Shown piece by piece: positions 27,910 to 54,749 of a stretch of DNA of 64,000 nucleotides. Every line of letters starts with the position of its first letter. The stretch's first letter is position 1. The translations under genes were made by a program, and so were the position numbers. The notes beneath the pieces are model-generated. The model ran no database searches and was not told the origin of the DNA. It saw nothing but the letters and a program-made list of their open reading frames with translations. This DNA is from a virus: IMG/VR virus record IMGVR_UViG_3300032053_000017, positions 1 through 64,000 of that record. One strand, 5' to 3'.

Positions 27910-28296
27910 ATGCCAGCGTGGAGTAGGGAGGAGACGCCCAGGACGTTGACGAAGCCGCACAGGCAGCTTATGGCGCTACTGACTGGGCTGGGGTTGGAGG
28001 TCAGGTCGGAGGTCCGGGTTGGACGGTACGCACTTGATATCTTGGTGGAGGAGCTCTGGCTTGGCTTTGAGGCTGATGGGACTTCGGCGCATGCTGGTCC
28101 GCGAAAACGCAAGCGGGACGCCGCACGCGACCTATGGATCTATGATAACGCGAGGATCCCGGTGTTGCGCGTGGATGAGGAGATGCTTAGGGCTTCGGCA
28201 TCTGATGCGGCGATGGTGCTTATCGATGACTTTATCAAGCAGCATTCTTCCGATGTAGAGGAGCGAAAGGAGCAGGGGAAATGGGTAGTCGTTTAA
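27910..28296 (+). CDS. DUF559/Vsr-like endonuclease
   Basis: EVRVGRYALDI, FEADG..H, D..RD..., VLRV. Confidence 0.7.
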   Translation: MPAWSREETPRTLTKPHRQLMALLTGLGLEVRSEVRVGRYALDILVEELWLGFEADGTSAHAGPRKRKRDAARDLWIYDNARIPVLRVDEEMLRASASDAAMVLIDDFIKQHSSDVEERKEQGKWVVV

Positions 28297-28697
28297 GACA
28301 GCGACACCGTCCGTTGAAGCCAGTCAAGGTTGCTTCTGCTGAGTTCTGTCTTGCTGAGATGCTCCTCATCCAGAAGTCGATCAAGGCGACGATTGACGCG
28401 CGCCTCAAGGGGCATAAGAAGCTGTCGCCATCTTTGAAGATGGTCATGCTGGCCGACGCTATCATCAATGAGGGTTCGGAGCTTAAAGCATGGCTGCCAT
28501 GGAAACTGTGGAGGGGCGACTACGGGCGCGAGCTGACAGAGGGGGAGCGTGAAGGCGTCATCGAGGAGCTCGTTGATCTTCTGCACTTTGTCTTGGAAGG
28601 TTTCATTGACATGGGTATCGATGACCCGAAGTTGCTGACCGGGTACTATCTAGCTAAGGCGAAGATCAATAAGGAGCGTCAGCAGAATGGGTACTAG
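28281..28697 (+). CDS. All-alpha dUTPase/dCTPase (dUTPase_2 / T4 gp56-like)
   Basis: E..EL..WLPWK.W, EELVDLLHF, Y..K..IN.ERQ..GY. Confidence 0.85.
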   Translation: MGSRLRQRHRPLKPVKVASAEFCLAEMLLIQKSIKATIDARLKGHKKLSPSLKMVMLADAIINEGSELKAWLPWKLWRGDYGRELTEGEREGVIEELVDLLHFVLEGFIDMGIDDPKLLTGYYLAKAKINKERQQNGY

Positions 28698-29228: not shown

Positions 29229-30308
29229 GTGCGCAAGAAGATAAACGTAGCTATTGTCGGGGTAGGCAACTGCGCTTCGTCGCTTGTCCAGGGCGTTAAC
29301 TTCTATCGTGATGCCAAGGTTCTCCAGGAGATCCCCGGCCTCATGCATCCGGTCTTGGGTGGGTACAAGATCTCGGACATCAATTTCGTTGCGGCATTTG
29401 ACATCGACGCCAACAAGGTGGGCAAGGATCTGTCTGAGGCCATCTATGCGCCGCCCAACAACACGCTTAGGTTTGCTCAAGGCTCATCAGATGTGCCGTA
29501 CATGGACGTCCCTGTTCAGCGTGGAATGACCCACGATGGGCTGGGCAAGTACCTATCGCAGATCATCAAGAAGTCGACAGCGCCTACGGTTGATGTGGCA
29601 AAGGTGCTGCGGCAGACAAAGACCGATGTCCTCCTCAACTACCTGCCGGTGGGCAGTGAGGAGGCGACCAAGTGGTACATGGAGCAGGCGCTCGAGGCTA
29701 ATGTGGGTGTGGTCAACTGCATCCCGGTCTTCATCGCCAGTTCGCCCTACTGGGGGGCGCGGTTCGAGGAGGCAGGACTGCCCATCATCGGGGACGATAT
29801 TAAGTCTCAGGTGGGCGCGACGATCCTGCACAGGGTGCTGGCGCGTCTCTTTGAGGACCGCGGTGTCCGCATCGACCGGATGTATCAGCTTAACTTCGGC
29901 GGCAACACCGACTTCCTCAACATGCTGGAGCGCGAGCGTTTGGAGTCGAAGAAGATCTCGAAGACGCAGTCGGTTCAGTCGCAGTTGGGAACGGCGCTTC
30001 CCGCTGAGCAGATCCATGTCGGGCCTAGCGACCATATCCCGTGGTTGTTGGATCGCAAGTGGTGCCACATCCGCATAGAGGGTACGACGTTCGGGAACGT
30101 GCCGCTGAACTTGGAGCTGAAGCTGGAGGTCTGGGACTCGCCGAACTCGGCGGGTATCGTGATCGACGCGCTGCGCTGCGTTAAACTAGCGCTTGACCGT
30201 GGCATCGCCGGCCCGCTGATCGCGCCGAGCTCCTACTTCATGAAGAGTCCGCCGACACAATTCACGGACAACGAGGCCCGTGAGGAACTGGAGGAGTGGA
30301 TTGCCTAA
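29229..30308 (+). CDS. ino1: myo-Inositol-1-phosphate synthase
   Basis: [65 protein letters not shown]; full length. Confidence 0.96.
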
Positions 30309-30834
30309 GGGCGTTATTTACGCGCTGATCAATTCCGATACACTTGAGATGCGATATGTCGGCAAGACTTCCAAGACGGCTGAGGCCAGACTTCAGACGC
30401 ATCTCAGGAATGTTCGCTTACGGCGCGGGTGCAATCATCATTTGCAGGCCTGGCTTCGTTCTCTTCTAGTTCCCCCGGCGGTGGTCATTCTCGAGCGTGA
30501 TGTGCTAGATTTGAACGAGGCTGAACGTCGGTGGATTGCAGATCTTCGGGCTCAGGGCGCTCGTTTAACAAATATGACTGATGGTGGCGATGGGTGCGCC
30601 CTTACGGGTCGGCATAATTCGGCAGAGACCGTTGCTAAAATAGTGGCTAAGACGCGCGGCCGAATTGTCTCTGCTGAGGCTAGGGCGCATATTTCGGCAT
30701 CAAGACAAAACGGGCGGCGTAGATTTGGTATGGATGCGCCTTTTTATGGTCGCCGGCATTCGTCGGTAACCAAGGCTAAGATTGCTGCTGCGCTGAAGGG
30801 CCCGCTTAATCCGAATTGGAAAGGCGGTCGTTAA
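30301..30834 (+). CDS. Free-standing GIY-YIG homing endonuclease with NUMOD3 repeats
   Basis: VIYAL...YVGKT, RL..H, E..WI, LTN.T.GG; HSxxTKAKI-type repeats; lower-GC codon usage. Confidence 0.8.
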
Positions 30835-31856
30835 TGGTTGTGCGTGAGGTAAAAGGCGACCCGAGGACCCACCGCCGCGCGTTCAGGGAGTTCGTGCGGT
30901 ATGAGTTGCTCTGCGGTGGCCCTGACCCGCATATGAAGTTGGCCCAGTCGATCGCCGGGCAACTGAGCGCGGATCTCATGCAGCGGGCCTGGTTTATCGG
31001 CTGCTACATCGGGCCGTACAACGTGCCGACCGGTGAGGCTATATTCGCTGATTGGTCACACCCTGTGCGCGCGCTGCATGAGCCGTGGGATTTCGAGGAC
31101 TGGATCCGAAGCAATTGGAGCAATTTGGTGCTGCGGCGCGAGCGCAGGCCGGTGCGGTCGCCGCGCAAGTTTGCCGAGCACATGCTCGACTACGCGGACT
31201 GGCTGACGCGGCCCGGCGGCTTTGAGGCGCTGGCACGGGCAGAGAGCTTCGAGGAGAGTTTTGAGATCGTGCGGCAGGTCCGGTACAACGGCCGGTACGC
31301 TACGATGAAGCTGTATGAGACGCTTCGGCGAACATGCGGGCTGCCGAAGTACGAGTTCACGGACATCAGGCCAGCAGGCGGCTGGTCGCCGCGGCTGGCG
31401 CTCTCTTGGCTCTATCCTGACGACGCGGTTGAACTGAACGGTAACGACAGCGCGTTCAACCTCACGATGGCACAGTGGGACGCCGAGCTCTTGCGCTATG
31501 AGTTGAAAATGGGAGGGATTGACCTCGACTGGTTCAACCTTGAGGTCATGCTCTGTGACTACAAACAGGCCTACGACGGGCGGCAATACCCGGGGCGGGC
31601 GCACGACTCGGAGCTGGGGCACTTGCGAAAGGTGCAGGCGGCATTTCCAAATACGGTGTTCAGAACGTTGAACACACGTTCGCTGCTGTTTCCAAGCTGG
31701 GCCCTCGGTGAGGTGCAGGGATGGGAGGGTCGGCGTGACGAGTGTAGTGCCGTGCTGGGTGAGCACGGGTACACATGGAGTGACGCGATATACGACTACG
31801 TACGAACGCGTGAAACCGGGGACTTTGTCAATCCCGTGGTGAGGAGCGGTTCATGA
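30834..31856 (+). CDS. aGPT-Pplase2 / amino-acid:DNA transferase-like DNA hypermodification enzyme (glycosylase-like fold)
   Basis: AWF..CY...Y, L..RRERR, GRY...K..E, SPR.AL, EVMLCDYK....R.YPG..D pattern; location beside an HMUDK-like kinase and a TS homologue. Confidence 0.72.
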   Translation: MVVREVKGDPRTHRRAFREFVRYELLCGGPDPHMKLAQSIAGQLSADLMQRAWFIGCYIGPYNVPTGEAIFADWSHPVRALHEPWDFEDWIRSNWSNLVLRRERRPVRSPRKFAEHMLDYADWLTRPGGFEALARAESFEESFEIVRQVRYNGRYATMKLYETLRRTCGLPKYEFTDIRPAGGWSPRLALSWLYPDDAVELNGNDSAFNLTMAQWDAELLRYELKMGGIDLDWFNLEVMLCDYKQAYDGRQYPGRAHDSELGHLRKVQAAFPNTVFRTLNTRSLLFPSWALGEVQGWEGRRDECSAVLGEHGYTWSDAIYDYVRTRETGDFVNPVVRSGS

Positions 31857-32311
31857 AGGTAACACAGATCACAGACGGACTCTATATCAGGGGCAAGTTC
31901 TTTGACATCCAGCAGCAGGATAAGCGTGTCGCTCTGCGTAAACTGGGTATCACATATGTGGTGAACCTTGTTCGACACGAGGATTGGGACCTCTACCAAA
32001 GCGCCGAGATCATGTACGAGCACATCCCGATCTCGGACGGGCGACTGGCAACGCCTGTCGCAGATAAATTGACGGTTCTTGCGAGGCGTCTGGCCATCCA
32101 CATCAAGCACGGGGGAGGGGTGCTCGTCTTCTGTAACGCGGGACGAAACCGTTCGGGGTTGCTTGCGGCTCTGATACTGCATGAGCTCTACCCCATATCA
32201 GGTAACACGGCGCTTGGCTGGGTGCGCAGGGCACGGCCGCGGGCGGTGGCAAACGAACACTTCGCGCGGTATCTTAACAGTGTAGGGATCAATACGGAGG
32301 CGGTGCTATGA
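31853..32311 (+). CDS. CX5R (DSP/PTP-like) phosphatase
   Basis: GITYVVNL, PISDG, VFCNAGRNRSG, RRARP...N..F. Confidence 0.85.
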   Translation: MKVTQITDGLYIRGKFFDIQQQDKRVALRKLGITYVVNLVRHEDWDLYQSAEIMYEHIPISDGRLATPVADKLTVLARRLAIHIKHGGGVLVFCNAGRNRSGLLAALILHELYPISGNTALGWVRRARPRAVANEHFARYLNSVGINTEAVL

Positions 32312-32501
32312 TTAGGGATAACCCCGCGGTTCAAATTGCTAGTGGGGTAAAGCTAGAGATGGCGTATGGGCAGCATACGGTGATTCAGGCGTGTCCCTCA
32401 ATGGCCGATGTGTATCGTGCTGACCGGATAATCAACCTCGAGACGGGCGTCGTGCTGAAGGACCGTTGGGGTTCAGTGGGGTTGCCGAGGAAGTACGCGC
32501 G

Positions 32502-33065
32502 ATGATCGTCAACCTGCGCGGACCTTCAGGAAGCGGTAAGTCCTACGTGGGACACCAGCTGTTGGACACATTTGGCGGCGAGCCTATCTTTGAGGATGGC
32601 TGGAACAAGTTCTCGCCGCGACTGATAGGCTACAAGCTGCCAGACAACTTCTACCTGCTCGGCTCGTACCGAGCAAAGGGTGGAGGATTGGATACGCTCT
32701 CGCCGCACGACAGGTCGGCACTGTTGCCGCTCATTGAGCGCTATGCTGCCATGGGGCATATCTTTTTCGAGGCGCTCGTGATCTCGAGCACTGTGCCATC
32801 ATACATAGAGATGGCGCAGCGACTGAAAATGCCATTCATCTTCGCATTCCTGGACACGCCGGTGGATCTCTGCATCCAGCGGATCTATCAGCGAAACGGC
32901 GGGAAACCTATCAAGGAGGATCCTGTCAAGGGGCACCACAAGTATATGACCCGGGTGGCTCAGCGGCTCCGTGATGCGGGCATGAAGACCGTGACCATCG
33001 ACTATAAGCGCTCGTTCGAAGAGGTCGTTAACCTCTTTCGCGCCGAGGGCTGGTATCCACTGTGA
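32502..33065 (+). CDS. P-loop kinase, 5-hydroxymethyl-pyrimidine DNA kinase (5-HMUDK)-like
   Basis: IVNLRGPSGSGKS, LGSY...GGLDT, FFEAL, FLDTP...C..RI..RNG. Confidence 0.75.
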   Translation: MIVNLRGPSGSGKSYVGHQLLDTFGGEPIFEDGWNKFSPRLIGYKLPDNFYLLGSYRAKGGGLDTLSPHDRSALLPLIERYAAMGHIFFEALVISSTVPSYIEMAQRLKMPFIFAFLDTPVDLCIQRIYQRNGGKPIKEDPVKGHHKYMTRVAQRLRDAGMKTVTIDYKRSFEEVVNLFRAEGWYPL

Positions 33066-33251
33066 CCGACGCTGAGCTTATAGCCCTGGCTGCCCTTGTA
33101 TGGGTTGAGACGCAAGGGATGATCGCGTTCAATGAGGAGAGGGCGCATGAGGGGTACGCTCCGGCTTATGGTGAACTTCTTTTTGTAACAAACCCTTCAA
33201 CATTGAAACTGCGGAAGGAACTAGAGCGGCGGGGCGTGCTGAAGGAGACTG

Positions 33252-34343
33252 ATGACAGTTAAACTAACTGGCGTCGGGGTTCATATCTACTCTGGTGGCT
33301 TCACCATTGGTATGGAGCAGGCCGGCGTTGAGGTTTTGGCACAGCTCGAGGAGCTTGACGCGGGGTTTGAGACGGCGCAGTTAAACCTCGCTACACGGAT
33401 GGATCATACTCTAGCGCCGTATGAGGACTGGCCGCTTAGGACGTATCAGAATAGAGTCAACATCGTGTATGCGAACCCCCCGTGTGCGCCGTGGAGTTTG
33501 GCAGGAGGTCGGAAGGGTATGGATGATCCGCGTATCGTCTATGCCATGGATTCGCTGGATGCGGGGCTGAAACTGAATGCGGACTTTATTGTGATCGAGT
33601 CGGTATGCCGCGCATGGTCGCCTACAGGCGGTCGGCCGTTGTTTGAGCGGTTTGCGCATAAGGCCATGAGGGATGGTTATGCCGTGACCATATTCTTCAC
33701 GAACGCGGTCTTGCATGGGGCGCCACAGTTGCGGCAACGGTTTCACTTTATCGCGCACAAGTATGAGATCAGGGATCTCTTCACCATAGCGCCCCTTACG
33801 TACGGTGACGTGTCTACAGTGTGGGATACCATTGGTGACCTTGAGGACCGTCCCGATGATGAAGCGTGGGGGCACAGTCGCACTGTTCCAGATGAGCGCG
33901 AGCTAAACGTGATACGCGACCTGCAGCAGGGCGAAAGTTGGGGTGATGCTTGGCGGCGCGTGATGGCGCGGGGGTTGCCCGCGAAGCCCGCACGGTTTAT
34001 CGCGCATAGACTGATCTACGACGCGCCGTGTGGGACCATCTTGGATATCGGTGCGATGGTGCACCCGACACAGGACCGAGTGCTGACGCTACGTGAGGGC
34101 GCGCGGCTGTGCGGCTACCCCGACGACTTCCAGTTCGCGCGGGGTAAACGTGGTTTCCACAACTCGGACGTGACACAGGCTGTCCTGCCGTTTGTGGGTC
34201 GGTACCTTGGTGCGGTATTCTCTCTAGGGATGAGGCGTGGACTACGGGTCGATGGGCGTGACGGCATAGAGGTCATCGACCTGCGGTCGTTTGCCAAGCC
34301 CTTCATGCCGAAGAAGTTCATAAGCGCTGGGAGGCCGGTGTAG
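33252..34343 (+). CDS. Atypical C5-cytosine DNA methyltransferase homologue
   Basis: HIYSGGF (I), NPPCAPWS (IV), IESV (VI), PQLRQRF (VIII), RVLTLREGARLCGYPDDF (IX). Confidence 0.8.
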   Translation: MTVKLTGVGVHIYSGGFTIGMEQAGVEVLAQLEELDAGFETAQLNLATRMDHTLAPYEDWPLRTYQNRVNIVYANPPCAPWSLAGGRKGMDDPRIVYAMDSLDAGLKLNADFIVIESVCRAWSPTGGRPLFERFAHKAMRDGYAVTIFFTNAVLHGAPQLRQRFHFIAHKYEIRDLFTIAPLTYGDVSTVWDTIGDLEDRPDDEAWGHSRTVPDERELNVIRDLQQGESWGDAWRRVMARGLPAKPARFIAHRLIYDAPCGTILDIGAMVHPTQDRVLTLREGARLCGYPDDFQFARGKRGFHNSDVTQAVLPFVGRYLGAVFSLGMRRGLRVDGRDGIEVIDLRSFAKPFMPKKFISAGRPV

Positions 34344-35401
34344 TGGACTACGGACCATACATCGTACTCGAGGGTCCTGACGGCACTGGGAAGACAACCC
34401 TTGCCAACGAGATCATCAGGCGTACGGGCGCGAATTATGTCCACTGCGGGCCGCCAGACGGGCCGGCGCTCGAGTACTACCTTCGGAAGCTTCGCTCTGT
34501 CAAGGGTCCTGCGGTGGTGGATCGGCTGCACGTCGGCAGCTACTGCTATGGCATCGCCTTCAGGCACGCCCCGGACCTGACGGAGTTTGAGAACTGGCTG
34601 ATCGAGGGGTTCCTTTACGCGCATGGCGTGCAGCTTATAAACTGTGAGCTGCCGGCTGAGATGGTCGACAAGAACTTGGCGCGGGGACCCGATAACGCGG
34701 ACGCGGCGATATATGAGAATCCAGCGAAGCGTGAGCTTCTGCGGGAGCTCTATAAGGAGAGGATGCTGGCGACCGAGCTGCCGCTCGTGCACTATGACTA
34801 CACCTCCTACTGTGGTGCATTTGAGGATATCGCGAGCTACATCGGTAACGCTCTGCGCATAGATACTCGGGCGCATGAGAGCTTGACTGAGCTGGATGCG
34901 ATTGGAAATATGGTCAACCCACGGCATATCTTGATCGCTGATCGGCCGTCATGGTATGACAGCACGGAAAACAGGCTGCGTAAGCAGGGTCTACTGCCGA
35001 CATGGCGTGTTGAGTTCATGAAGCGGTTTAACCGACGATTCGGGGGACTGGTGCTTAACTCAACGTCTGGTCGGTACATGTACATGGCGCTTCAGAGCGC
35101 CCAACTCAGATTGCGCGACTTTGCGATGTTCAACTCGGTCCAGGGCGACGGGCGGCATCTGCCTGAGACAATGTGGGGGCTGCCGCTCAAGTTTTGGACA
35201 CAGGCGGGTGATATTGTGGCATTGGGGCGTAACGCAGGTAGCGAACTGGCACGTGCCAATGTGCCCTACCGGGCCGTGCCGCACCCGCAGCATGTCAGAC
35301 GCTTTCACTACAAGGATGTTATGCGCTATGGGGCGGCATTGACTGACCCGAAGCAGCCCTGGGAGTGTGAGACTAGCTACTGCAAGACGGGAGAGTGGTA
35401 G
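34343..35401 (+). CDS. dNMP (thymidylate-like) kinase fused to a C-terminal UDG-like domain
   Basis: IVLEGPDGTGKTT, DR.H.G..CYG; C-terminal SG.Y...AL, IVALGRNA, VPHPQHVRRF. Confidence 0.75.
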   Translation: MDYGPYIVLEGPDGTGKTTLANEIIRRTGANYVHCGPPDGPALEYYLRKLRSVKGPAVVDRLHVGSYCYGIAFRHAPDLTEFENWLIEGFLYAHGVQLINCELPAEMVDKNLARGPDNADAAIYENPAKRELLRELYKERMLATELPLVHYDYTSYCGAFEDIASYIGNALRIDTRAHESLTELDAIGNMVNPRHILIADRPSWYDSTENRLRKQGLLPTWRVEFMKRFNRRFGGLVLNSTSGRYMYMALQSAQLRLRDFAMFNSVQGDGRHLPETMWGLPLKFWTQAGDIVALGRNAGSELARANVPYRAVPHPQHVRRFHYKDVMRYGAALTDPKQPWECETSYCKTGEW

Positions 35402-35402
35402 G

Positions 35403-36266
35403 ATGAACCCTACTATATTCGCTGGTGAGGACGCGACAGGACTTTGGCTCAGGGCGCTTAGAGGACTGATCAACGAGGGCGAGAGGGTCAGTCCGCGTGG
35501 GATGGGGACGCTTGAGCTGCGGCCGGCTATCTTGTCATTGCGTGACCCGCGGAAGCGGTGGGTTCAGGTGCCAGAGCGTAAGCTGTCAAAGGCGTTGGGC
35601 TACATCGAGGCGTTTCTACTGTTGACTGGTATGAGTGATGCGGAGCTGCTGGTGAAGGCCGCGCCGCAGTATGCTAACTTTGTCAACCCGGAGACCAAGA
35701 CGCTTGACGGGGCGTATGGGCCGCGTGTCGGTCCGCAACTTGACTACATCCGTGAGCTACTGAGGCGTGACCCGGACACCAGGCAGGCCGTCGTCACTAT
35801 CTTTGGACCAGCTGACCATCATGAGTCGCGGGACGTGCCGTGTACGGTCAGTTTGCACTTCATGGTGCGAGATGGGGCGCTTGAGCTTATCGTCTACATG
35901 CGGTCTAACGATGTCTGGCTAGGATGGCCTTACGATGTCGTGATGTTTACGGTGTTGCATGAGGCGTTGGCTGTTGATCTGGGACTGGCGCTTGGGCAGT
36001 ACACACACGTGGCTGGGTCGCTTCACCTCTATGATAGAAACAGCGACAAGGCCGTTAGGATCGCGGCGGAGTACGGCGGAAGATGGACTGAATCTGACGT
36101 GCCAATGCCAGAGGGCGCGACGCTTGAGGAACTGCAGGGTTATGCGCGCGCGCTGCTTTCAGCGTATAGGCGTGACCTGACGGTGAAAGATGTTTTGGGC
36201 AGTTTTAGCAGACTGCCAGCATTCTTCAAGGCCGCTGCTCGTGAGATGCTGGAGAAGGAGGCATAG
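35403..36266 (+). CDS. Thymidylate synthase homologue, predicted dCMP hydroxymethylase
   Basis: SPRG, AYGPR, DPDTRQA, catalytic PCT, MRSNDVWLGWPYD (Asp at the E. coli Asn177 position), SLHLY. Confidence 0.85.
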   Translation: MNPTIFAGEDATGLWLRALRGLINEGERVSPRGMGTLELRPAILSLRDPRKRWVQVPERKLSKALGYIEAFLLLTGMSDAELLVKAAPQYANFVNPETKTLDGAYGPRVGPQLDYIRELLRRDPDTRQAVVTIFGPADHHESRDVPCTVSLHFMVRDGALELIVYMRSNDVWLGWPYDVVMFTVLHEALAVDLGLALGQYTHVAGSLHLYDRNSDKAVRIAAEYGGRWTESDVPMPEGATLEELQGYARALLSAYRRDLTVKDVLGSFSRLPAFFKAAAREMLEKEA

Positions 36267-36268
36267 CG

Positions 36269-36553
36269 ATGCCGCACATTCCAGAGCGACGACGTGACGA
36301 TATTGACTTGTCCAGGGAAGGACGCAACAGCGCTGGGGAGTGCGATGGGCCAGGTGAGCTCAACTGGGCATTGACGGAGGTTGTTATCGGCTACCTTCTG
36401 GCGAAGGGCCTGAGCTATAGAACGTGCAACGACATTGTCGGCGCGCTGGACAACGCCAAGGACGAGTTCCGCCGGCTTGTACAGCATCCATACGAGGACC
36501 GGAAGATAGTGGAGAATGGGAATGCCTATCCCAAGGAGGTCTTGTCATGCTGA
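36269..36553 (+). CDS. Conserved phage hypothetical protein (DUF6899-like)
   Basis: GELNW, Y...NDIVGALD.AK.EF.R....PYED.KI.ENG. Confidence 0.6.
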   Translation: MPHIPERRRDDIDLSREGRNSAGECDGPGELNWALTEVVIGYLLAKGLSYRTCNDIVGALDNAKDEFRRLVQHPYEDRKIVENGNAYPKEVLSC

Positions 36554-36999
36554 ACCTCTATCTAGCAGGCCCTATAACGGGCTGCACCTACAAGGGGGCG
36601 ACCAACTGGCGCGCGTCGTTTGCCGAGCGGGTTAAGGAGCTCGGGTACAACGTGTACAGCCCGATGCGGGGCAAGGAGCACCTGTCGCGGGTCAAACGGC
36701 TCAGGCCGCACGGTTATGACAACCCGACGTCGATTGACAAGGCGATCATGCGTCGTGATTCATTTGATGTCAGGCGCGCTGACGTCGTATTGGCTAACTT
36801 GCATGGCGCCGAGATCGTGAGTATCGGGACGATGTTCGAGCTCGCCTGGGGATACATCCTCGGGAAGTTCGTTCTCGTTGTCATGGATGATACGGACAAG
36901 ATACACGACCACGCGTTCGTTGAGCAGTCGGCCAGCACAATCGTTGAGTCGCTCGAGGACGCTGAGCGGGTGCTTGAGGTCTTGGCGGGTAGCCTCTAA
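36547..36999 (+). CDS. Nucleoside 2-deoxyribosyltransferase / NMP N-glycosidase family protein
   Basis: YLAGPI, SPMR, RD..DVRRAD, SIGTMFELAW. Confidence 0.85.
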   Translation: MLNLYLAGPITGCTYKGATNWRASFAERVKELGYNVYSPMRGKEHLSRVKRLRPHGYDNPTSIDKAIMRRDSFDVRRADVVLANLHGAEIVSIGTMFELAWGYILGKFVLVVMDDTDKIHDHAFVEQSASTIVESLEDAERVLEVLAGSL

Positions 37000-53797: not shown

Positions 53798-54244
53798 GTG
53801 GCTGGAAGGGACCGTCCTTTACGCGATATGGAGGGCGAGATGCCAGCACTAAGTTTGAGCAAGTGTTCACAGCTGCTTGAGGCAGCCAGTTTCGAGCCCC
53901 TGCCTGGACGTACGTCGGGCGAGTCGGTAACTGCCCTCTGTATGGCGGCCAGCATGCATAAGTCGGCGGTCGAGAACGGATTGACTGCTGAGGTTCTGCT
54001 TGAGCTACGGACCAGTCGTTTTCCCATGCTGACCAAGACGGTCGAGGGCGGCTTCAAGCACATGATCTCAGTTGACAGCGGTGCCGTCTATGCTGAGCTT
54101 TGGAGCAAGGGCGACAACTGGTACGCGGTCACGGATGCCGCGATCAACCTAGTCAAGGGGATCCGCAAGGGCATGGATGCGCGAGATGCGGTGCCTCTGT
54201 TTCTGAAGGCCGTGTTCCCTCGAAAGCGTTGCTGCGGTGGATGA
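53798..54244 (+). CDS. Hypothetical protein
   Basis: ORF; start codon uncertain. Confidence 0.5.
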   Translation: MAGRDRPLRDMEGEMPALSLSKCSQLLEAASFEPLPGRTSGESVTALCMAASMHKSAVENGLTAEVLLELRTSRFPMLTKTVEGGFKHMISVDSGAVYAELWSKGDNWYAVTDAAINLVKGIRKGMDARDAVPLFLKAVFPRKRCCGG

Positions 54245-54749
54245 GCCGGTAGTACTACTTAGCAGTGGGGTTGGCGTCTACGGTATAACGCAGGGCCTCT
54301 ATCAGTCGAGCGAGCCCATGGTGGACGCAGACTGGGACAAACTGTGGGAGCTGGCAGACGTGATCGTTGGGCTTAACGCGGCGGTAGTCAGCGAGGTGCC
54401 GACCAACAAGATGTTGGTCAAGTGGCCTATCGAGGATGGTCCGCTGCCGAACCTTGAGGTACTGCGCGGGCTGGTGGAGCTGCTGGCCGAGCTGCTAGAG
54501 AACGAGAAGCGTATCGTGGTATTCTGCGGCGCGGGTGCAAATAGGTCGGGACTGATCACAGCATTGGTCGTCCGCCAGCTAACAGGTGAGACTGGGCGCA
54601 GGGCCGCAGATCATGTGCGGACACGTCGACCGGGAGCGCTTATAAGCGGGACATTCAATATGTACCTCAACGCCTTGCCCGACCTGGAGGAAGAACTGGT
54701 AGGGGCAGGGCCTGAGACGCCCCAAGAGGGCGAGATCGAGGGGATCTAA
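54237..54749 (+). CDS. CX5R (DSP/PTP-like) phosphatase, second copy
   Basis: WPIEDG, VFCGAGANRSG, VRTRRP.A. Confidence 0.85.
   Translation: MDEPVVLLSSGVGVYGITQGLYQSSEPMVDADWDKLWELADVIVGLNAAVVSEVPTNKMLVKWPIEDGPLPNLEVLRGLVELLAELLENEKRIVVFCGAGANRSGLITALVVRQLTGETGRRAADHVRTRRPGALISGTFNMYLNALPDLEEELVGAGPETPQEGEIEGI

Follow-up and report, generated by a model that had tools for sequence, protein, structure and literature searches.

A candidate phage pathway for cyclitol hypermodification of DNA pyrimidines, headed by a myo-inositol-1-phosphate synthase gene

The viral DNA analysed here (the window, 64,000 nucleotides) corresponds to positions 1 to 64,000 of a 105,972-bp viral contig of the IMG/VR database (record IMGVR_UViG_3300032053_000017), which is estimated to be ~83% complete. 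Between positions 29229 and 36266, its plus strand carries ten open reading frames (ORFs) whose stop and start codons overlap or abut, headed by a gene for myo-inositol-1-phosphate synthase (Ino1). We suggest, with moderate confidence, that this cluster encodes a phage pathway that decorates DNA pyrimidines, in this phage most likely cytosine, with a cyclitol, the nucleophile joined to the base being derived from Ino1. The initial annotation of the window had proposed that inositol is attached to a 5-hydroxymethyl-pyrimidine. The enzymes and the Ino1 linkage behind this proposal stand, whereas the base has been narrowed to probable 5-hydroxymethylcytosine (5hmC) and the step at which the phosphatase acts is left open. 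All eight genes named in that annotation, from Ino1 to a thymidylate synthase (TS) homologue, were found in a tightly coupled run on the plus strand (Table 1).

The first gene encodes a full-length and genuine Ino1, as had been claimed: besides its PF01658 domain, it matches Mycobacterium tuberculosis Ino1 (1GR0) from end to end (residues 4-358; 479 bits, E 7e-143). In this match and in its conserved motifs ([32 protein letters not shown]) it resembles the actinobacterial enzyme (Rv0046c, 1GR0), but the window copy is phage-encoded and lies inside a DNA-modification operon. A five-membered cyclitol-phosphate synthase (Ari2-like) was rejected as an alternative identity, since the match to 6k96 reached only 199 bits. 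The protein is 74-77% identical to cellular Ino1, e.g. from metagenome-assembled genomes of Dehalococcoidia. In a tree of 124 sequences, whose cellular hits form a biased sample, the phage copies were placed on long branches near the base; this tree is unable to separate a single capture from multiple captures. An apparent 590-aa Ino1 'fusion' (P0001) turned out to be an assembly duplication.

Neighbourhood surveys revealed that Ino1 is linked to transferase (AADT) and kinase genes in other phages, far beyond close relatives of the window phage. A profile scan from the Ino1 side found 292 viral contigs encoding this enzyme, the best 80 of which were classified by the genes within 7 kb (surveyed loci are designated L). 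Base-modification genes were present in 68 of these best 80 loci: an AADT module of the window type in 42, a canonical ADDT of the type found in Caulobacter phage Cr30 together with a TET dioxygenase, usually with a P-loop kinase, in 10, an Asp-type TS with an HMUDK_hel-containing protein and a C5-cytosine methyltransferase (C5-MTase) homologue in nine, and FolE/QueC/QueE/DpdA 7-deazaguanine clusters in seven. The other 12 loci (including L087-L091 and L104) showed no recognised modification gene, and several of them are contig ends or possibly cellular fragments. As the four architectures are non-homologous and occur in different phage lineages, accidental synteny of Ino1 with modification genes is unlikely.

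Two cultured phages illustrate this linkage. In Cr30 the ADDT gene (179 bits) is located two genes upstream of Ino1, and in Stenotrophomonas phage Moby (L001, 7201-12615) Ino1 lies between folE and queC/dpdA/queE, an arrangement suggesting that a cyclitol may be joined to a 7-deazaguanine base in clusters of the Moby type. Ino1 also lies within a FolE/QueC/DpdA/QueE cluster in L099, L111, L112, L121 and L125, with an FkbM methyltransferase in L111.

From the transferase side, a profile scan of IMG/VR gave 29 loci of the window AADT subfamily, 29-47% identical to the window protein. In almost all of them a gene for a Cys-based dual-specificity-type phosphatase (DSP) is located directly downstream of AADT and is followed by a P-loop kinase gene, and in ~12 distinct contigs Ino1 is immediately upstream of AADT. 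The order Ino1, a slot of variable content, AADT, DSP and kinase is kept across loci whose AADTs are only 32-47% identical. Three hydroxymethyl routes are joined to this module: (i) an Asp-type TS with the C5-MTase homologue and a kinase fusion (the window, L005, L008, L060, L061), (ii) an Asn-type TS with HMUDK, a separate HMUDK_hel and an HD nucleotidase, or (iii) a TET/JBP dioxygenase with Ploopntkinase3.

The transferase had been assigned to the aGPT-Pplase family, and its PF18724 match (Table 1; 37.6 bits in a six-frame genome search) and predicted fold both agree with this. An AlphaFold model built from a 17-sequence alignment (pLDDT 91.9) was compared by Foldseek with 350,542 PDB chains, and the three best matches (8z2n/8z2m, prob 1.00) were PUGT, the 5-phosphomethyl-deoxyuridine glycinyltransferase gp46 of phage PaMx11 (PMC11472151). 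VIA-align superimposed 248 residues of the model on 8z2n (Z 17.4, root-mean-square deviation 3.1), while the next-best fold families, DUF2419 and Ogg-type glycosylases, scored Z ~9 (9.2). The model matches the two-lobed helical, HhH-glycosylase-like fold of PUGT, at a sequence identity of ~14%. PUGT was found by the fold search alone; neither AADT nor its 17-sequence profile matched any PDB sequence, and no PDB sequence was matched by Cr30 ADDT. In a profile-profile comparison, the AADT family was related to Cr30 ADDT with Prob 96.7 and E 3.7e-10.

The residues E243-x3-C247, D37, Y161 and K165 are invariant or nearly so among 17 AADT homologues, and the Cys is aligned with the Cys of Cr30 ADDT. 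Residues Glu243/Cys247, Asp24, Trp146 and Lys150 of PUGT have been proposed to serve in the attack on C6 and in holding the donor (PMC11472151). The conserved AADT residues are probably their positional counterparts, an equivalence taken from the aligned ranges (21-296 versus 8-291) and the Cr30 ADDT profile alignment and not from inspected coordinates. The nearest homologues in cultured phages, 26-30% identical, are those of Gordonia, Microbacterium and Rhodococcus phages, some of them annotated as aGPT-Pplase2. In Gordonia phage MakoManhole, the one that was examined, the genes next to AADT encode an oxidoreductase and a kinase; neither a DSP nor an Ino1 annotation occurs there. A complex prediction for AADT and DSP, run without controls, scored 0.00 and is evidence neither way.

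The TS homologue indicates which base is modified. Its closest solved relative is the CMP hydroxymethylase MilA, with true thymidylate synthases matched at only ~E 1e-16. In the TS superfamily, N177D is diagnostic of cytosine, an acidic residue in place of L143 of a hydroxymethyl product, and a retained D169 of an enzyme other than 5-hydroxy-dCMP synthase (PMC13326640). The window protein reads D-V-P-C (L143D, with the catalytic Cys146 present) and R-S-N-D-V-W-L-G-W-P-Y-D (D169 kept, N177D); by these residues it carries the dCMP-hydroxymethylase pattern, not the dUMP pattern, which upholds its annotation as a TS-family hydroxymethylase. A 5-hydroxy-dCMP synthase of the RB69 type is ruled out by D169. 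Neither a dCMP deaminase (best match 12.9 bits) nor TET was found in the 106-kb contig. Since the TS signature is of the cytosine type and the contig shows neither of these enzymes, the modified base is probably 5hmC and not 5-hydroxymethyluracil (5hmU). A TS-family dUMP hydroxymethylase of 664 aa in L017 (1523-3517) is split just behind its catalytic Cys; the insert is large, resembles an intein and contains an HNH-like segment.

It could be argued that the modified base is nevertheless 5hmU: either the host or an unseen phage enzyme would deaminate 5-hydroxymethyl-dCMP or dCMP, and 5hmU would then be the substrate of the kinase and AADT. The characterised members of the HMUDK and AADT families act on 5hmU only, not on 5hmC (PMC8989533, PMC11472151), and this weighs against a cytosine pathway. 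In addition, the same AADT subfamily is accompanied by Asn-type (dUMP) hydroxymethylases in most related loci, and in L108 (6444-6908) a dCMP/cytidine deaminase gene adjoins that of the Asp-type TS homologue, standing between it and Ino1, so that a hydroxymethyl-C nucleotide could become the U form. We consider this explanation unlikely, given the three TS residues, the relationship to MilA and the lack of a deaminase match in the contig. Moreover, among the loci in which a TS homologue was found, only those with the Asp-type enzyme add the C5-MTase homologue, and they do so without HMUDK_hel.

The C5-MTase homologue, named as such in the initial annotation, belongs to PF00145. The motifs NPPCAPWS (PPC), ESV, QxRxR, LTLREGARL and TQAV are conserved among five homologues, and motif I (HIYSGGF) is shortened and divergent. 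The protein may methylate residual cytosine or may contribute to reactions at the C6/C5 positions of this base. The next gene had been described as a deoxynucleoside monophosphate kinase fused to a uracil-DNA glycosylase (UDG); the kinase is supported by phrog_761, and the UDG label only weakly. The C-terminal half bears the conserved motifs GDRP.., SSSGxYL and PHPQ. Two homologues gave sub-threshold matches to PF03167 (18.6 and 12.9 bits; cut-off 24.3), the window domain itself gave none, and in the nearest Atlas clusters UDG was found in 18-30% of members, which are weak leads. A profile of the domain returned only noise from PDB, and the AlphaFold model (pLDDT 52, below 50 in the C-terminal half) was too poor for a fold search. 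These sequence leads weakly support a UDG-superfamily domain. A disguised HMUDK helical domain was rejected (hhalign against HMUDK_hel, Prob 2). An N-terminal UDG domain (PF03167, 67 bits) also occurs on a family A DNA polymerase in L085 (10318-13059), encoded ~2 kb downstream of Ino1 on a 273,563-bp contig.

The presence of a 5-HMUDK-type kinase was confirmed by a PF18748 match well above the cut-off and by a Walker A motif. As the neighbouring hydroxymethylase is of the cytosine type, 5hmC appears more likely than 5hmU as its substrate. The phosphatase, also correctly recognised at the outset by its CX5R motif, retains IPISDG and VFCNAGRNRSG, and 11 homologues all share its catalytic residues D62, C94 and R100. 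It had been thought to make free inositol before transfer. However, DSP may act on DNA-bound inositol phosphate instead of free inositol-1-phosphate. We lean towards this order because (i) DSP is fused to DNA-acting enzymes, namely to AADT in L024 (a 503-aa ADDT with DSPc) and, in L022, to the DNA kinase (a 354-aa DSPc with Ploopntkinase3), (ii) it is also kept in AADT clusters for which the retrieved sequence (up to 8 kb on each side, less at contig ends) contains no Ino1, and (iii) a kinase-phosphatase fusion is sensible if each part acts on a different phosphate. The kinase and phosphatase parts of T4 polynucleotide kinase-phosphatase likewise act on different phosphates. The window encodes another Cys-based phosphatase, paralogous to DSP, far from the cluster at 54237-54749 (PF00782, 26 bits; WPIEDG and VFCGAGANRSG intact).

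According to the pathway that we propose, an NTP pyrophosphatase of the dUTPase_2 type and the TS homologue would make 5-hydroxymethyl-dCMP before replication, as the residue signatures suggest. The kinase fusion, a candidate 5-hydroxymethyl-dCMP kinase, would phosphorylate it towards the triphosphate, and the phage polymerase would incorporate 5hmC into DNA. After replication, the HMUDK-type kinase would phosphorylate the hydroxymethyl group to give 5-phosphomethyl-C, by homology with phages ViI, M6 and PaMx11. AADT would then flip the base, its conserved Cys would attack C6, and after expulsion of the phosphate the exocyclic methylene would be captured by a nucleophile. Judged by gene linkage only, this nucleophile would be a hydroxyl of the Ino1 product, either L-myo-inositol-1-phosphate or free inositol formed from it, so the predicted product is an ether-linked inositol-methyl-cytosine. 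DSP would remove the inositol phosphate, rather after transfer, on DNA. The modification would likely protect the phage from restriction and other DNA-targeting defences. An alcohol nucleophile has a precedent, since the AADT of ViI makes O-serinyl-T, an O-linked adduct of the serine hydroxyl (PMC11472151).

In relatives of the window phage the cyclitol might be tailored further by oxidation, O-methylation or radical SAM chemistry. The slot between Ino1 and AADT holds an SDR protein in L005, a radical SAM/SPASM protein in L006 and L030, an FkbM-type methyltransferase in L007, L011, L012 and L022, and a HAD hydrolase in L008 and L031, all typical of cyclitol tailoring. FkbM-type methyltransferases occur beside Ino1 or a few genes from it in all four architectures (for the other three, L101 of the Cr30 type, L111 of the 7-deazaguanine type and L113 with TS and C5-MTase). 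In the window the slot contains only a homing endonuclease, and we therefore predict plain inositol in this phage.

A phosphatase always accompanies Ino1: DSP in the window family and, in the other three architectures, a small HAD-like protein. Genes of the latter family (116-148 aa; e.g. L001, 9359-9730, i.e. Moby gp040, and L111, 8901-9251) follow Ino1 immediately or after one intervening gene, and the family is annotated as hypothetical. Its motifs (DxDGV, TGRS, K, FEDD) and its nearest Atlas clusters, HAD and PNKP-type phosphatases, point to a HAD protein, with faint Pfam HAD-clan matches. Alignments by hhalign with DSP and with larger HAD proteins were not significant, and a PDB profile search gave only spurious polyubiquitin matches.

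A different attachment of the cyclitol has also been considered: a phosphodiester to the 5-methylene, an N-linked aminocyclitol, or a glycan-like second layer on another adduct. The direct product of Ino1 is a phosphate ester, and weak TAGT-like proteins are encoded beside Cr30 ADDT and beside or near AADT in L020, L023 and L032. An inosose/inosamine route would fit the SDR of L005 and the DegT/StrS-family aminotransferase of L122 (5766-6998), whose gene overlaps the start of Ino1, with two PAPS_reduct+DUF3440 proteins encoded ~0.7 kb downstream. The DegT/StrS family makes aminocyclitols. In L124 (5714-8104) Ino1 is the C-terminal part of a 796-aa protein, the N-terminal ~430 aa of which are unassigned; an aminocyclitol route may operate in L122 and L124. 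For the window such a linkage seems rather improbable, because SDR, aminotransferase and glycosyltransferase are all missing from it and the universal phosphomonoesterase argues for removal of the phosphate and not for bridging. The claim that the cluster contains no glycosyltransferase or pyridoxal phosphate (PLP) enzyme is in agreement with our searches: no aminotransferase was seen, and GT1 (PF00534), GT2 (PF00535) and TAGT (PF20691) gave no match in the 106-kb, ~83% complete contig, the T4 alpha- and beta-glucosyltransferase families not having been searched.

Several observations weigh against an O-linked inositol on cytosine. For every AADT characterised so far, the nucleophile is an amino acid or an amine (PMC8989533). 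The retrieved sequence contained no Ino1 in about half of the AADT+DSP loci, although several of these are short fragments. Ino1 is therefore not obligatory for this pair, and in such loci either the donor comes from the host or another phosphorylated alcohol is used. HMUDK_hel (PF18723), a separate gene in the uracil-type relatives of the cluster, gave no match at E<=0.1 in the 106-kb contig. The proposed pathway assigns no step to the C5-MTase homologue, which would be redundant if cytosine were fully replaced. Many of the 80 Ino1 loci are near-duplicates or come from a few lineages, so that the counts overstate their independence, and genes that appear absent may lie off the end of the incomplete contig.

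Some of these observations would also suit Ino1 as an auxiliary metabolic gene that supplies the host with inositol for phosphatidylinositol, mycothiol or compatible solutes and is found here through the clustering of early and metabolic genes, with AADT using an amino acid or amine. The high identity to cellular enzymes gives it the look of a recently captured housekeeping gene, and a few viral Ino1 loci lack any recognised modification gene. This explanation is the least probable of those considered: it conflicts with the proximity of Ino1 to four non-homologous kinds of modification genes in different lineages, with tailoring enzymes inserted exactly between Ino1 and AADT, with the constant presence of a phosphatase and its fusion to AADT, and with the cultured hosts of Ino1-bearing phages, Stenotrophomonas, Caulobacter and Ralstonia, which to our knowledge are not inositol-lipid or mycothiol organisms.

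Table 1. Genes of the Ino1-headed cluster and its immediate neighbours (window coordinates)
Predicted product	Position	Strand	Supporting match
dUTPase_2-family all-alpha NTP pyrophosphatase	28281..28697	+	PF08761, E 1.4e-9, 38.9 bits
Ino1, myo-inositol-1-phosphate (inositol-3-phosphate) synthase	29229..30308	+	PF01658, 123 bits, E 7e-36
GIY-YIG/NUMOD3 homing endonuclease	30280..30834	+	NUMOD3 27 bits, GIY-YIG 21 bits, phrog_314 E 2e-14
AADT/PUGT-family transferase	30816..31856	+	PF18724, 36.7 bits (cut-off 26.2), E 5e-9
Cys-based dual-specificity-type phosphatase (DSP)	31853..32311	+	PF00782, 55.2 bits (cut-off 33.5)
Small ORF, 65 aa	32308..32505	+	no Pfam or PHROG match
5-HMUDK-type P-loop kinase	32466..33065	+	PF18748, 37.6 bits (cut-off 27); Walker A GPSGSGKS
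Small ORF, 66 aa	33062..33262	+	no Pfam or PHROG match
C5-cytosine methyltransferase homologue	33252..34343	+	PF00145, 88.9 bits
P-loop (d)NMP-kinase-like domain and putative UDG-superfamily domain	34343..35401	+	phrog_761, E 3.7e-10, residues 4-170
TS-family pyrimidine hydroxymethylase	35367..36266	+	MilA 5b6d match, E 7e-31
Nucleoside 2-deoxyribosyltransferase-family protein (MilB/DNPH1-like)	36424..36999	+	PF05014, 50.5 bits

The 65-aa ORF of the cluster is not conserved in relatives (in L005 the DSP, HMUDK and C5-MTase genes abut, leaving no space for it) and, judged by this comparison, may not be a real gene. Two further genes flank the cluster. The pyrophosphatase encoded upstream of Ino1 is a candidate dCTPase/dUTPase feeding dCMP to the hydroxymethylase; its homologues lie directly upstream of C5-MTase-like genes in L031, L050, L056, L062 and L063, and the two genes may thus form a conserved pair. 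On the other side, the PF05014 protein is encoded ~150 bp after the MilA-like TS homologue, an arrangement reminiscent of MilA/MilB in mildiomycin biosynthesis. The same family includes human DNPH1, a hydrolase of 5-hydroxymethyl-dUMP. The window protein may edit the nucleotide pool, and its membership of the pathway is uncertain. The contig also encodes a family A DNA polymerase, a DnaB-like helicase, a primase, a UvsX-like recombinase, a large terminase and a portal protein. A megablast comparison of the cluster with 50,697 phage records gave zero matches.

The proposed pathway may be compared with the thymidine hypermodification of phages ViI, M6 and PaMx11, which proceeds from a dUMP hydroxymethylase through 5-HMUDK and AADT/PUGT to tailoring (PMC5889632, PMC8989533, PMC11472151). 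Common to both are a TS-family hydroxymethylase, an HMUDK-family P-loop DNA kinase, a PUGT-fold AADT with a conserved Cys, adjoining tailoring genes and phosphate as the leaving group on the 5-methylene. However, the donor-supply gene of the window is Ino1, which points to a cyclitol instead of the amino acid or polyamine; the cluster includes, as an integral part, a Cys-based phosphatase that has no equivalent in the published pathways; the hydroxymethylase is of the cytosine type; and a PLP enzyme, FAD oxidase and acetyltransferase are missing.

In the 5hmC pathway of T-even phages, the gp56 dCTPase, the gp42 dCMP hydroxymethylase and the gp1 dNMP kinase are followed by alpha- and beta-glucosyltransferases. 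The window resembles this system in the predicted formation of 5-hydroxymethyl-dCMP by an Asp-type TS homologue, with an NTP pyrophosphatase and a dNMP-kinase-like neighbour, and in the polyol-rich C6 unit on the hydroxymethyl group; the mass of the predicted adduct equals that of glucosyl-5hmC (+C6H10O5). In contrast to the T-even phages, attachment is predicted to be carried out by a kinase and AADT and to give a non-glycosidic ether to a carbocycle, for which no nucleotide-sugar donor is needed, and the GT1, GT2 and TAGT searches of the contig were empty.

A third comparison concerns phage clusters with TET/5mC dioxygenases, in which the hydroxymethyl group is glycosylated and not phosphorylated and substituted (PMC8256090; preprint 10.1101/2023.12.21.572611). 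In the relatives L007 and L014 and in the Cr30-type loci (L100-L123), Ino1 and AADT/ADDT occur together with TET/JBP and a P-loop nucleotide kinase (PF18751), whereas the window contig is without TET.

The initial annotation held an inositol base modification to be undescribed, and full-text literature searches, in which the coverage of subscription journals was partial, likewise gave no report of inositol on DNA or of inositol linked to phage DNA modification. More tentatively than for the window itself, we hypothesize that Ino1 marks a widespread, undescribed class of hypermodification, in which a non-glycosidic carbocyclic polyol is carried by 5hmC, 5hmU and, probably, the 7-deazaguanine of the Menderavirus type, and which would include the first 5hmC kinase/AADT pair and a DNA-acting phosphatase. 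The polyol would be inositol itself or a compound made from it by methylation, oxidation or amination. As the mass of the adduct is that of a hexose, some 'hexosylated' phage bases might be misassigned or misassignable. The prediction is testable, as Cr30 and Stenotrophomonas Menderaviruses such as Moby are in culture.

The hypermodifications known in phages comprise sugars from nucleotide-sugar donors, amino acids and polyamines, and an Ino1-derived cyclitol attached by a kinase and AADT would add a chemical class to them. If the proposed pathway is correct, the phosphate-leaving-group chemistry would be extended from thymine to cytosine and would gain a phosphatase step, possibly acting on DNA, and new DNA-labelling enzymes, e.g. 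a 5hmC-specific kinase and transferase, would become available. In the phage records examined (Moby, Cr30, RP13 and others) Ino1 is annotated without a stated role, and the pathway would explain its presence. It would, at the same time, present restriction, CRISPR and type IV systems with a further modification to cope with.

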